Assembly (NCBI GenBank): GCA_036396895.1
Contig: DASWKB010000004.1
Coordinates: 8,829-72,828 of the forward strand
DNA: 64,000 nt
Source: a bacterium
GTDB taxonomy: Bacteria; Omnitrophota; Gorgyraeia; Aquiviventales; Aquiviventaceae
Reading direction: 5' to 3'
Shown: positions 17,188 to 24,956 of the stretch, in pieces
Layout of the letters: each line of letters starts with the position of its first letter
Numbering within the stretch: the stretch's first letter is position 1
Notes under the pieces: generated by a model
Databases searched by the model: none
What the model was told of the DNA's origin: nothing
The model's input: only the letters and a program-made list of their open reading frames with translations
Program-made: the position numbers and the translations under genes

Positions 17188-17433
17188 TCAGCCCCCGACG
17201 ACGTCTCCGACGACAGGCTCGACCTTGACGCCCTTCTTCTCGAGGAACGCGAGCGCCTGCTTGAGCTGCTCCTCCGCGCCCTCGAGCTCGAGCGTCACTT
17301 CACCCACGTGCTCGGTCACTTTCGCCCGCCGGATGTTTGGCACGACGCTGTACTCCTTGGCCATCATGTAAATGACCGGCTCCTTGATGAGGTGCTGCGG
17401 AAAGATCAACGTCACTTGCTTCGTGGACATCAC
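17188..17433 (-). CDS. Stand-alone NIL (MetN C-terminal-like) domain protein ending in Gly-Gly
   Basis: 81 aa: VTLIFPQHLIKEPVIYMMAKEYSVVPNIRRAKVTEHVGEVTLELEG..ALAFLEKKGVKVEPV, then tail VGDVVGG-stop. Lies 12 nt downstream of moeB. Confidence 0.6.
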   Translation of the reverse strand: MMSTKQVTLIFPQHLIKEPVIYMMAKEYSVVPNIRRAKVTEHVGEVTLELEGAEEQLKQALAFLEKKGVKVEPVVGDVVGG

Positions 17434-17445
17434 ACGCCTCCTGGT

Positions 17446-18267
17446 TCACCATTCGCGTTGCGAATGCTGCACACACGAGCCGCCGGCCGATGCCGGCGGC
17501 AGCGACACGATGGTCGAGTGATCGCCGCAGACCGCGCAGGCCGGGTCTCGCCTGACGGGGACCGTCCGGAACGACGAGGCCGCGCCGTCAAAGACGAGGA
17601 GCCGGTCCGCCAGCGGCGTGCCGAATCCCAGCATGAGCTTGAGCGCCTCGTGCGCCATCAGGCTGCCGATCACGCCCGCCTCCGGCCCCAGCACGCCGGC
17701 CTCCCGGCAGCTCGGGATGGCGCCCGGCTCCGGCGGCTCCGGAAACACGCACCGCAGGCACGCGCTCCGGCGCGGCAGGACCGTGAGCACCTGGCCGCGG
17801 AACTGCACCACCCCGCCATGCACCAGCGGGATGCCGCCGAGGACGCAGGCGTCGTTCACCGCGTAACGCGTGGGGAAATTATCCGAGCCGTCCAGCACCA
17901 GCTGGTAGCCCGCCAGGAGCTCCGGCGCATTTTCGGCCGTGAGGCGCGTCCGGTGCGTCCGCACCTTCACCGCGGGATTCAGCGCGCGCAGCCGCTCGGC
18001 GCCGGACTCCGTCTTCGCGCGCCCGAGGGACGCCGTCGCGTGCAGGAGCTGCCGGTGCAGGTCGCTCGCGGCCACCTCGTCGGAATCGATGAGGCCGAGC
18101 GTGCCGACGCCGCTCCCCGCGAGGTAGAGCGCCGCGGGCGAACCGAGACCGCCGGCGCCGATCAGCGCCACGGATGCGCGGCGCAGCCGTTCCTGTCCTC
18201 CGACTCCAACCTCCGGGAGGATCAGCTGCCGGCTGTAACGCGCGATCTCCTCCTTGGTCAATCCCAT
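17446..18267 (-). CDS. moeB: MoeB/ThiF-type E1-like adenylyltransferase
   Basis: RYSRQLILPEVGVGGQERLRRASVALIGAGGLGSPAALYLAGSGVG; two CxxC pairs (CLRC, CAVC). Confidence 0.85.
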   Translation of the reverse strand: MGLTKEEIARYSRQLILPEVGVGGQERLRRASVALIGAGGLGSPAALYLAGSGVGTLGLIDSDEVAASDLHRQLLHATASLGRAKTESGAERLRALNPAVKVRTHRTRLTAENAPELLAGYQLVLDGSDNFPTRYAVNDACVLGGIPLVHGGVVQFRGQVLTVLPRRSACLRCVFPEPPEPGAIPSCREAGVLGPEAGVIGSLMAHEALKLMLGFGTPLADRLLVFDGAASSFRTVPVRRDPACAVCGDHSTIVSLPPASAGGSCVQHSQREW

Positions 18268-18328
18268 GCGTCGAGCCTCGCGGCGGGTGCCAGGCGCGCG
18301 CCCGGCGGCGCGTCCCGCCGATCCGGCG

Positions 18329-18604
18329 TCAGCCGCCGGCGATCGCCGGGATGATCGAGACCTCGTCCCCGTCCTTCACGGAGGTCTGGTCCCCCTGGAG
18401 AAACCGGATGTCTTCCTCGTTCACGAACACGTTCACGAAGCGCCGGAGCTTTCCCTGCTCATCGCAGATGCGCTCCCGGACGCCGGGATGCTTCCGCTCG
18501 AGGTCCTCCAGGATTCCGGCGACGGTCGTCCCGTCGCACGCCACTTCCCCCTGCCCGTTGGTCAGCCGCTGCAACGGCGTGGGGATCCGCACGGTCACTG
18601 CCAT
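18329..18604 (-). CDS. MoaD/ThiS/CysO-family sulfur-carrier protein (C-terminal AIAGG)
   Basis: 91 aa from the in-frame ATG 18604: MAVTVRIPTPLQRLTNGQGEV...DGDEVSIIPAIAGG-stop. The listed 476-aa ORF is read-through over thrC. Confidence 0.8.
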   Translation of the reverse strand: MAVTVRIPTPLQRLTNGQGEVACDGTTVAGILEDLERKHPGVRERICDEQGKLRRFVNVFVNEEDIRFLQGDQTSVKDGDEVSIIPAIAGG

Positions 18605-22906: not shown

Positions 22907-22911
22907 CCGCG

Positions 22912-23751
22912 TCAGATGTGCATCCCCCGCGTTTCATCCGGCGAGGCCGGATGCCGGGCTTCGGGGAAATGCACGGTCTCGCCCAGCTCCTCCCGGAACA
23001 CCTGCTCGACCTCCTCGCCGAGAATGTCGAGAATCTTCCGCTGGCACGCCATCAGCGCCGGGTCCTCGGCATGGCGCGGACGCGGCGCGGCGATGGACTG
23101 GACGTCCCGCACGCGGCCGGGCCTGGCCGAGAAGACATAGACCCGGTCCGCCAACCCCGTCGCTTCTCGGACGTTATGCGTCACGAACAGGATGGTCGGC
23201 CTGGCGAGCTCCCAGATCTCCAGCAGCTCGTTCTGCAGCACCGCGCGCGTCTGCGCGTCGAGGGCCGCGAACGGCTCATCCAGCAGCAGAACCGACGGCT
23301 GAAGCACCAGCGCCCGGGCGAGGGCCACGCGCTGGCGCATGCCGCCGGAGAGCTCGTGCGGATACGCGTGCACGAACTTGGACAGATGCACGAGCCGGAT
23401 GTACTCCATCGCCCGCGACCGCCGGCGCTCGGGATCCTCCTTGCTCATGCGGAGCCCGAACTCCACGTTGCCGAGCACCGTCAGCCAGGGAAAGAGCGCC
23501 GCGTCCTGGAACACCACTGTCCGGTCCGGGTTCGGCCCCGCGATGGGCCGTCCGCCGATGAGCACCTGGCCGGCGTCGGGCCGGTCGAGCCCGGCGATCA
23601 AATGGACGATCGTGCTCTTGCCGCACCCCGAGGGCCCCAGGAGGCAGACGAACTCTCCCTGCCCGACCGTCAGGCTGACGTCCTGAAGGACGTCAACGCG
23701 GCGGCCGTTACCCGCGAACGATTTGAAGACGTTCCGGACCTCCACCTGCAT
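22912..23751 (-). CDS. ABC transporter ATP-binding protein, NitT/TauT family
   Basis: GPSGCGKST, VVFQDAALFPWLTVLGNV, LSGGMRQRVALARAL, LLLDEPF. Confidence 0.85.
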   Translation of the reverse strand: MQVEVRNVFKSFAGNGRRVDVLQDVSLTVGQGEFVCLLGPSGCGKSTIVHLIAGLDRPDAGQVLIGGRPIAGPNPDRTVVFQDAALFPWLTVLGNVEFGLRMSKEDPERRRSRAMEYIRLVHLSKFVHAYPHELSGGMRQRVALARALVLQPSVLLLDEPFAALDAQTRAVLQNELLEIWELARPTILFVTHNVREATGLADRVYVFSARPGRVRDVQSIAAPRPRHAEDPALMACQRKILDILGEEVEQVFREELGETVHFPEARHPASPDETRGMHI

Positions 23752-23777
23752 GGGGGTGCTGGCCTCCGGCGCCGACG

Positions 23778-24956
23778 CTACGCCGCGGCCTGCTGCCGCA
23801 TGGCGTCGATCAGCACCTCGGCGACCTCCCGACGGGAAATCTCAGGCGGCGGGGGCGTCCCGGCCTGCAGCAGCTCCCGCACCTTGGTCCCGCTCAGCGT
23901 CACGTGCCGCTCCGCCGGGTGCGGGCAGGTCTTGGAGGAGACCATGCCCTCGCAGACGGTGCAGTACGCCGTGTGCTCGAAGCAGAGCGGCGTGATCCCG
24001 ATGTCCCCCGGCGGAAAGTCGTCGAAGATCCGCTGCGCGTCATACGTGCCGTAGAATTTCCCCACCCCGGCGTGGTCGCGGCCCACGATGAAGTGCGTGC
24101 AGCCGTAGTTCTTCCTGATCAGGGCATGGAACACCGCCTCCTTCGGGCCGGCGTAGCGCATCGAGGCGGGATTGACGGCCAGGACGACCCGGTCCGCGGG
24201 ATAGTAGCCGGCCAGCAGCACCTCATAGCTGCGCATCCGGACCGCCGCGGGCACATCGTCCCCCTTCGTCTCGCCGATGATCGGATGGAGCAGGAGCCCG
24301 TCGCAGATTTCAAGCGCGCACTTCTGGATATACTCGTGCGCGCGGTGAATGGGGTTGCGGGTCTGGAACGCGACGACGCGCCGCCAGCCGCGCTCCTGAA
24401 AGATGCGCCGGGTGTCCGCGGGATCGAGCCGGGCGGCCTGAAAGGTCGTCTGCGCCGGCCGGTTCACCACGCTGATCGTCCCGCCGAGTGATACCTCGCC
24501 CGCGCTCATCAATCGCGCGACCCCGGGATGCGACGCGTCCGTCGTGCCGAACACCGCCTGCGCTTCCCGGGCTTTATCCGGCGTATACAGGTCTTCCAGA
24601 TGCAGCACCGCCACGATCTCGCCGCCTGCGCGCAGCGCGACCTCCCGCGCTCCGCGGAGGCGATCGCCCTCGTCCCGGTTCACCGCCAGCGTCACCGGAA
24701 TCGTCCAGACGAGCCCGCCGGCCAGCCGGCCCTTGGCGAGGACGGATTCGTAATCGCGCTTGGCCAGGAAGCCGGTCAGCGGACTGAATCCGCCGATGGC
24801 GATCATCTCGACATCGGACAGCGCCCAGCCGTCCAGCTCAACAGCCGGCGCCTTCGAGGCCTTCGCCAAGAGAAACTCCCGATCCTTGCCCGTCACAATC
24901 CGGTTGATCAAGGTGCCACCGTGGGGCTCTATCATCGGATCCTCATGTTTGTCCAT
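23778..24956 (-). CDS. sat: Sulfate adenylyltransferase (ATP sulfurylase)
   Basis: IEPHGGTLINR, VAFQTRNPIHRAHE, GCTHFIVGRDHAG motifs. Confidence 0.9.
   Translation of the reverse strand: MDKHEDPMIEPHGGTLINRIVTGKDREFLLAKASKAPAVELDGWALSDVEMIAIGGFSPLTGFLAKRDYESVLAKGRLAGGLVWTIPVTLAVNRDEGDRLRGAREVALRAGGEIVAVLHLEDLYTPDKAREAQAVFGTTDASHPGVARLMSAGEVSLGGTISVVNRPAQTTFQAARLDPADTRRIFQERGWRRVVAFQTRNPIHRAHEYIQKCALEICDGLLLHPIIGETKGDDVPAAVRMRSYEVLLAGYYPADRVVLAVNPASMRYAGPKEAVFHALIRKNYGCTHFIVGRDHAGVGKFYGTYDAQRIFDDFPPGDIGITPLCFEHTAYCTVCEGMVSSKTCPHPAERHVTLSGTKVRELLQAGTPPPPEISRREVAEVLIDAMRQQAAA

Follow-up and report, generated by a model that had tools for sequence, protein, structure and literature searches.

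A 64,000-nt stretch of the Omnitrophota contig DASWKB010000004.1 (positions 8,829 to 72,828, assembly GCA_036396895.1; hereafter the window) carries a cluster of sulfur metabolism genes that we read, with a probability of about 0.6, as one or two sulfate-assimilation operons with a homocysteine synthase system of the MetM/MetO type at their core. In Streptomyces albulus, MetM (a homolog of threonine synthase, ThrC), the sulfur carrier MetO, Mec and MoeZ convert O-phosphohomoserine to homocysteine (Hasebe et al. 2024, AEM 90:e01247-24, as described in 10.1101/2024.10.14.618325 and PMC12172450), and GapMind 2026 gives MetO, MoeZ, Mec and MetM as pathway steps (10.1101/2024.10.14.618325). The cluster in the window comprises eleven co-directional minus-strand genes, which run from the start of sat at 24956 to the stop of a gene for a small NIL-domain protein at 17188 and are separated by intergenic gaps of -4 to 174 nt. 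A first-pass annotation of this DNA had listed these genes with their order and limits and had proposed a protein-thiocarboxylate type of sulfur assimilation, in which two pyridoxal phosphate (PLP) enzymes, one CysM-type and one ThrC-like, share a single E1 and a single JAMM protease. The coordinates proved exact, and Pfam and NCBIfam scans recovered each of the listed domains as described. The thiocarboxylate type is likewise supported by a CysO-type carrier, an E1 adenylyltransferase, a JAMM protease and the linkage of the carrier to the ThrC-like enzyme.

Linkage of a ThrC-like enzyme to a sulfur carrier

By scanning one genome per species, we obtained 80 loci with a 60-81% identical ThrC-like product, which span Omnitrophota, Nitrospirota/Thermodesulfovibrionia, Methylomirabilota, Latescibacterota, Binatia, Zetaproteobacteria, Verrucomicrobiota, Planctomycetota and other groups. 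The eleven window proteins were mapped onto these loci, and adjacency was counted in the 78 loci with enough sequence. In 69 of them, from many phyla, the carrier gene lies directly downstream of the ThrC-like gene (in the window it begins 59 nt downstream), and a NIL gene is present in 65, directly after the carrier in 40; in Omnitrophota-type loci the E1 gene is interposed between carrier and NIL. Within 6 kb, counted in the 49 loci having 5 kb on either side, the most frequent neighbor is E1 (34 loci), followed by JAMM (25), the second TusA-fold protein described below (TusA2, 18), a CysK-type (17) or CysM-type (12) cysteine synthase, and sat (10). The linkage of NIL to the ThrC-like gene and its carrier thus exceeds that of either E1 or JAMM. 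On a narrower scale, the same order of eleven genes is found in more than 12 Omnitrophota-type genomes, including metagenome-assembled genomes (MAGs) of Candidatus Omnitrophota/Omnitrophica and third-party annotation (TPA) assemblies labelled Planctomycetales, and the flanks are also common to these relatives (pheT-mgsA on one side, DUF4912-GH57-glgA-pfkB on the other). Because order and flanks recur in independent Omnitrophota-type MAGs, the arrangement is a conserved feature of the lineage rather than a chance association.

The possible homocysteine branch that the first-pass annotation had attached to the ThrC-like enzyme is supported by this tight and wide linkage to the carrier and by its fit with the MetM/MetO pathway, and the enzyme and carrier are probably best read, from family and context, as a pair for thiocarboxylate-based homocysteine synthesis. 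An N-terminal CxxC...CxxC ribbon is present in 78 of 84 members of the ThrC-like family. The NCBIfam thrC model accepts the window enzyme (283 bits, cutoff 167). Approximately 12 loci of the Nitrospirota type encode, directly after the module, another ThrC that has no ribbon (353-367 residues, 35-38% identity), and the one that was scanned reaches 325 bits with the thrC equivalog TIGR00260. Since a separate canonical ThrC adjoins the module there, the enzyme with the ribbon is something other than the housekeeping threonine synthase in these Nitrospirota loci.

The carrier is of the CysO type, and neither MoaD nor ThiS. Over its full length it is 50.5% identical to 4n6e_B and 49.5% identical to CysO of Mycobacterium tuberculosis (3dwg_C), with 87-88 bits, and it stays far below the moaD models (TIGR01682, 23.5 bits, cutoff 66; PRK11130, 16.8 bits, cutoff 94) and likewise far below the thiS equivalog; it does reach the SAMP1 model (61.4 bits, cutoff 60). 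The C-terminal PAIAGG is essentially invariant in 83 carrier homologs from other genomes, approximately half of which have 1-20 additional residues beyond GG, a pattern characteristic of sulfur carriers that undergo maturation or recycling by a JAMM protease. The window carrier stops exactly at GG. The best NCBIfam descriptions for E1 are MoeB, MoeZ and UbaA, all below cutoff (MoeZ 291 bits, cutoff 647), and its orthologs are all 250-293 aa long, so that none has a rhodanese domain. In the JAMM protein, which scores 90 bits with the desampylase model (cutoff 130), the motif E..HSHx7Sx2D can be read directly from the sequence and is intact. Both E1 and JAMM look catalytically intact. The refuting outcome foreseen by the first-pass annotation, namely that carrier and E1 would turn out to be MoaD and MoeB, was not what we found.

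The two TusA-like proteins of the cluster differ in distribution. TusA1 is confined to Omnitrophota relatives and keeps its Cys in 13 of 13 homologs within the motif DM[LT]C[AS]QA. TusA2 is the ortholog of the canonical G-x-x-C-P TusA whose gene precedes that of E1 in other phyla, Nitrospirota among them; the window protein and its close relatives have no Cys left but are otherwise strongly conserved, whereas distant homologs keep G-x-x-C-P. The set also varies among close relatives, two of which (L007 and L018) have only a Cys-less TusA and four of which (L006, L011, L013 and L016) have no TusA2.

A pathway can be proposed from these components. Sat would convert sulfate to adenosine 5'-phosphosulfate (APS), which would be reduced to sulfite and sulfide by genes outside the window, and the ABC (ATP-binding cassette) ATPase and permease would import a sulfur compound. 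The rhodanese-less E1 would adenylate the C-terminal Gly-Gly of the carrier, onto which sulfur would be loaded to give the thiocarboxylate, the donor being either free sulfide or a TusA1 Cys persulfide. The candidate MetM would form a PLP-bound vinylglycine-type intermediate from O-phosphohomoserine, and attack by the thiocarboxylate followed by an S-to-N acyl shift would yield a carrier-homocysteine amide, from which JAMM would release homocysteine and the recycled carrier. In relatives whose carriers have residues beyond GG, the same JAMM may also mature the carrier.

Cysteine synthase, NIL protein and alternative readings

The label "cysM-type", which had been given to the cysteine synthase, does not hold. 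The enzyme reaches 454.6 bits with the cysK model TIGR01139 (cutoff 350.95) and falls below the cutoff of both cysM models (cysM, 302 bits, cutoff 394). Its top PDB matches are CysK enzymes, including M. tuberculosis CysK1 (2q3b), and M. tuberculosis CysM lies outside the best 60; identity is 52% to Escherichia coli CysK and 43% to M. tuberculosis CysM. In a neighbor-joining tree with M. tuberculosis CysM (checked against 3dwg_A, 100%) and E. coli K-12 CysK and CysM as references, E. coli CysK clusters with the window enzyme and the "type A" relatives of the latter (55-79% identity), all of which have the long lid loop of CysK. Arg220 of M. tuberculosis CysM is the residue that recognises O-phosphoserine, and the window enzyme has no basic residue at the aligned column. 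The "type B" enzymes, whose identity to the window enzyme is 38-47%, fall instead with E. coli and M. tuberculosis CysM; their loop is short and carries Lys or Arg at the position of Arg220, and one scanned representative scores best on the cysM model. The ranking of PDB matches alone failed to part type B from CysK, whereas the tree with these references did. Type B genes are usually followed by JAMM, and seven loci hold both types in one cluster; the window holds type A only. Because several phyla keep a CysK type together with a separate CysM type beside JAMM, the CysM type is suggested to be the carrier-dependent one. Thus, the CysM-type cysteine branch envisaged for this locus is not supported, the sole cysteine PLP enzyme here being an ordinary CysK by homology, which most likely makes cysteine in the usual way from O-acetylserine and free sulfide.

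For the NIL protein, the C-terminal GG had been listed by the first-pass annotation as if it carried weight, yet GG is the C-terminus in only 9 of its 120 best homologs (79-90% identity). The usual ending among these is VVS, VSS or VSG, and more distant proteins have GDI(V/I)E, so the GG end is a trait of this genome and a small number of relatives. The AlphaFold model (pLDDT 85.8) has a beta-alpha-beta-beta-alpha-beta, ACT-like fold and a predicted disordered tail of five residues, which are not conserved. The best structural matches of the model are the C2 (NIL) domains of the MetNI methionine importer, with TM-scores of 0.75-0.80, followed by ACT domains; no beta-grasp protein was among its structural matches. 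The C2 domain of MetN binds methionine. Judging from the model and from its linkage to the MetM-carrier pair across phyla, the NIL protein is not a ubiquitin-like carrier and is most likely a regulatory or docking subunit that senses a ligand, such as methionine or a related metabolite.

Several observations weigh against the MetM/MetO reading or parts of it. The MetM-like enzyme and true ThrC both pass the thrC model of NCBIfam, and sequence models do not separate them. The putative orthology to MetM and MetO of S. albulus is drawn from family, architecture and genomic context, and the steps of the proposed mechanism, which we regard as probable, come from homology and gene linkage. Because the TusA genes are variably present, a TusA persulfide relay to E1 is possible and not obligatory. 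No homoserine kinase, sulfite reductase or APS/PAPS (3'-phosphoadenosine 5'-phosphosulfate) reductase was found in the 64-kb window, nor was a serine acetyltransferase, the only hexapeptide acyltransferase there being LpxA-like. In addition, the end of the gene for TusA1, which has the Cys, and the start of cysK share 4 nt, consistent with translational coupling, and a CysK-type gene lies inside the carrier cluster in several phyla; on either ground CysK could also use protein-bound sulfur.

These last two observations are also what favors a dual-acceptor system, in which one carrier thiocarboxylate feeds both CysK (via carrier-cysteine) and MetM (via carrier-homocysteine), with one E1 and one JAMM serving both. 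CysK-type genes adjoin the MetM-carrier-NIL module in 17 of the 49 loci, and the clustering of a single carrier with MetM and a CysM-type enzyme followed by JAMM elsewhere (L025, L052, L054, L056, L058, L064 and Binatia loci) makes a shared carrier a plausible design. However, the window enzyme is a canonical CysK by model scores, identity, lid loop and the missing counterpart of Arg220, and the co-occurrence of both types in seven loci implies that they are not interchangeable. To our knowledge, the only carrier-dependent cysteine synthase characterised is of the CysM type. We therefore consider the first-pass model of two PLP acceptors, taken here to share one carrier, to be rather unlikely in the window, and the same arrangement to be plausible in relatives with the CysM type. 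Loci with a CysM-type enzyme, usually followed by JAMM, occur in Latescibacterota, Binatia, Methylomirabilota and others (L025, L052, L054, L056, L058, L062, L064, L070 and L072-L078), where the cluster and an apparently single carrier gene are common to the CysM-type and MetM-like enzymes; as candidates for a true dual-acceptor thiocarboxylate system, they are preferable to the window.

Readings that separate the carrier from homocysteine synthesis fare worse. It is very improbable that carrier, E1 and JAMM serve molybdopterin or thiamin synthesis, tRNA 2-thiolation or SAMP-like conjugation, with CysK and ThrC as ordinary neighbors: acceptance by the thrC and SAMP1 models and the names of the best E1 models would fit such a view, but the carrier is approximately 50% identical to CysO types over its full length, the window open reading frames (ORFs) that were scanned include no moaE, thiG or ttuA-like gene, and neither the near-constant adjacency of carrier and ThrC-like genes nor the separate canonical ThrC of Nitrospirota would be expected. 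The ThrC-like enzyme might instead resemble cysteate synthase, which is likewise homologous to ThrC and extended at the N-terminus, and add sulfite to a phosphorylated amino acid, as the sulfate-activation genes of the cluster and the relatives with cysH and no sulfite reductase nearby might suggest. With only 71 bits on the cysteate synthase equivalog (cutoff 325), and with the near-obligatory linkage to carrier, E1 and JAMM left unexplained, we regard this as still harder to credit. Least credible, to the point of being almost negligible, is the idea that the same E1 also activates the NIL protein as another ubiquitin-like sulfur carrier of a non-canonical kind; its VVGG end, the position of its gene directly downstream of E1 and the overlap of the E1 and NIL genes in relatives point that way, against which stand the rarity of GG, the MetN C2-like rather than ubiquitin-like fold and the non-conserved tail. 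The MetM/MetO reading, with CysK acting on free sulfide beside it, is thus the one that we retain.

Cluster layout, transport and other features of the window

The predicted features are listed in Table 1. The sigma-70-like match is the sole site (in two overlapping registers) in the 9.4 kb scanned, where 0.6 would be expected. The database gene call places the start of sat at 24935.

Table 1. Predicted elements of the sulfur-assimilation cluster, in order of transcription (coordinates of the window)
Feature	Coordinates	Strand	Basis
Sigma-70-like promoter match upstream of sat	25031..25060	-	9/12 hexamer matches; weak evidence only
sat, ATP sulfurylase (sulfate adenylyltransferase)	23778..24956	-	PF14306 (PUA_2) and PF01747; NF003166 552.6 bits, cutoff 387
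ABC ATPase, NitT/TauT-like	22912..23751	-	ABC_tran; best NCBIfam models below cutoff
ABC permease, NitT/TauT-like	22151..22906	-	Domain scans; best NCBIfam models below cutoff
Repetitive extragenic palindromic (REP)-like hairpin, permease-JAMM spacer	22050..22141	none	Inverted GGAATTC/GGAATGC heptamers
JAMM/MPN+ metalloprotease (Mec/HcyD-like)	21634..22035	-	Prok-JAB 84 bits
TusA-like protein 1 (TusA1), Cys-bearing	21220..21459	-	PF01206 30.5 bits, barely over gathering score
CysK-type cysteine synthase (O-acetylserine sulfhydrylase A type)	20279..21223	-	PALP domain; TIGR01139
TusA-fold protein 2 (TusA2), without any Cys	20010..20270	-	PF01206 33.8 bits
ThrC-family PLP enzyme with N-terminal 4-Cys zinc ribbon; candidate MetM	18664..19926	-	Domain and PDB matches
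CysO/MetO-type ThiS-family sulfur carrier, C-terminus PAIAGG	18329..18604	-	Domain scans; identity to CysO
MoeB/ThiF-type E1 adenylyltransferase, 273 aa	17446..18267	-	ThiF 262 bits; ThiF the sole domain, no rhodanese
Stand-alone NIL-domain protein, 80 residues, C-terminus VVGG	17188..17430	-	NIL 61 bits

The best NCBIfam matches of the ABC ATPase and permease are SaoA/SaoP, taurine and nitrate models, all below cutoff, and the name "Sao", which comes from a selenoprotein-associated system, was not adopted for this transporter. The first-pass annotation had pointed out that no binding-protein gene accompanies it, and this holds over the 64-kb window when an SsuA-like protein of the relative L007 is used as the query. 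Two Omnitrophota relatives, L007 (6505-7524) and L010 (approximately 6318-7280), encode an SsuA-family sulfonate-type binding protein, with its gene flanked by those for the ATPase and for a permease that is divergent. This binding protein reaches 215 bits with TIGR01728 (cutoff 163.5), and the permeases of the two loci are 37-39% identical to the window permease, suggesting that the transporter module has been exchanged within the lineage. As for sulfate reduction, E. coli CysH, CysI and CysJ queries had no match in the 64-kb window; cysH, which relatives keep next to sat, lies beside the cluster in 17 related loci, APS kinase in at least one, and a CysI-like sulfite reductase in three loci only, none of them from Omnitrophota.

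Two kinds of repeats occur in and around the cluster. The REP-like element, with approximately three inverted GGAATTC/GGAATGC heptamers, has three intergenic copies (22067-22131, inside the hairpin listed at 22050-22141, 29377-29436 and 33927-33988); its motif has 16 matches against 0.27 expected, and the copy between permease and JAMM is predicted to fold at -49.3 kcal/mol (z = -6.4). A second heptamer hairpin repeat, built of GGAAGCT units (15126-15189, 21538-21570, 26746-26778, 27324-27335 and others; 13 matches against 0.18 expected), has a copy in the JAMM-TusA1 spacer, and thus two different REP-like elements flank JAMM and interrupt the cluster.

Just upstream of the cluster, a 6S RNA (RF00013, 86.9 bits) lies at 26445-26630 on the minus strand and adjoins the start of a mgsA/rarA-like gene. 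An ORF of 87 residues (26920-27183, minus strand), with a weak RHS-repeat match taken from the L001 gene call of the database, resembles an isolated fragment; it lies between mgsA and pheT, the gene for the beta subunit of phenylalanyl-tRNA synthetase. The window also contains the chromosomal origin region (38198-42071 and 42378-50704), with parB, parA, yidC, yidD and rnpA on the minus strand and dnaA, dnaN, gyrB and gyrA on the plus strand; GC skew changes sign near 42 kb, and the parAB-yidC-rnpA block has a GC content of 52-59% compared with approximately 68% for the genome. Two long plus-strand ORFs run past the window ends. One of more than 2054 residues (57837-63998) has a malate synthase TIM-barrel (670-848) and an isocitrate lyase domain (approximately 1568-1704) and may be a fused glyoxylate-cycle enzyme; the other, of more than 1564 residues (3-4697), has a coding-like codon composition and no Pfam match at E <= 1e-4.

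Relation to known systems

The locus combines two known kinds of system and does not point to a new kind of chemistry. One is the class 4e neighborhood of Iyer, Burroughs and Aravind (2006; PMC1779556), which unites a ThiS-like/MoaD carrier, a JAB protease, a rhodanese-less E1, SirA (TusA), ATP sulfurylase and an ABC transporter, and which includes the HcyS/HcyD/HcyF/MetY system of Wolinella succinogenes, where homocysteine is formed on a carrier. In that study, the rhodanese-less E1 always occurs with SirA/TusA, and TusA was proposed to replace the rhodanese (PMC1779556). All of these components are clustered here as well. The acceptor is different: a ThrC-family enzyme that presumably uses O-phosphohomoserine takes the place of the O-acetylhomoserine sulfhydrylase MetY, and neither the cluster nor the scanned window ORFs yielded a MetY domain. 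Relative to Wolinella, the locus has CysK and NIL in addition, and sulfite reductase, PAPS reductase and APS kinase are absent from the window.

The other is the MetM/MetO pathway. As described for S. albulus, a ThrC-homologous PLP enzyme is likewise encoded next to a carrier of the ThiS/MoaD family, E1 and JAMM are needed, and the enzyme is commonly mis-annotated as threonine synthase. Here, by contrast, one cluster holds everything, E1 has no rhodanese domain (MoeZ has one), the carrier stops exactly at GG, and TusA-like and NIL proteins are added. PMC12172450 places an S-adenosylmethionine (SAM) riboswitch on Streptomyces metM, whereas Rfam detected no riboswitch, SAM or otherwise, within the window cluster or upstream of it, at the gathering threshold or at E <= 1. 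The CysO/CysM/Mec/MoeZ system of M. tuberculosis resembles the locus in its carrier and in the presence of JAMM and E1, and differs in having an O-phosphoserine-specific CysM, with another lid loop, and an E1 with rhodanese. A true CysM beside JAMM, as in M. tuberculosis, belongs to versions of the cluster in other phyla, not to the window.

The conserved NIL partner of the MetM-carrier pair appears to be the single element of the locus that is new. A literature search found no description of a trio of NIL, sulfur carrier and ThrC-like enzyme, nor of sulfur assimilation in Omnitrophota. NIL/ferredoxin proteins are required in the DUF39 homocysteine pathway, which is unrelated to the MetM route (PMC5764234), and those proteins (MA1822 and DvMF_0262) likewise tie a NIL domain to homocysteine/methionine metabolism; the NIL protein here differs in being stand-alone, with neither a ferredoxin nor an ABC ATPase domain, and in being paired with a non-homologous homocysteine synthase. 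One may go further and imagine, as a speculation that we hold to be unlikely as a whole, that NIL is an obligatory third subunit of MetM/MetO that senses methionine or homocysteine or docks the carrier, that NIL is a module common to two unrelated homocysteine pathways of the anaerobe type, DUF39 with NIL/ferredoxin and MetM with carrier and NIL, and that the single CysO-type carrier of Omnitrophota, charged by a TusA-type persulfide relay in place of a rhodanese, feeds both CysK and MetM. If this were true, a single protein thiocarboxylate would be the route of all reduced sulfur into the two amino acids. As a soluble protein of 80 residues, NIL offers a simple handle on the role of NIL domains in homocysteine synthesis. 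For the family, the probable MetM/MetO assignment would extend this route from Streptomyces to a compact, all-in-one cluster in uncultivated Omnitrophota, with its core form also present in Nitrospirota, Methylomirabilota, Binatia, Zetaproteobacteria and others, and it should put an end to the annotation of such genes as threonine synthase, MoaD and MoeB.

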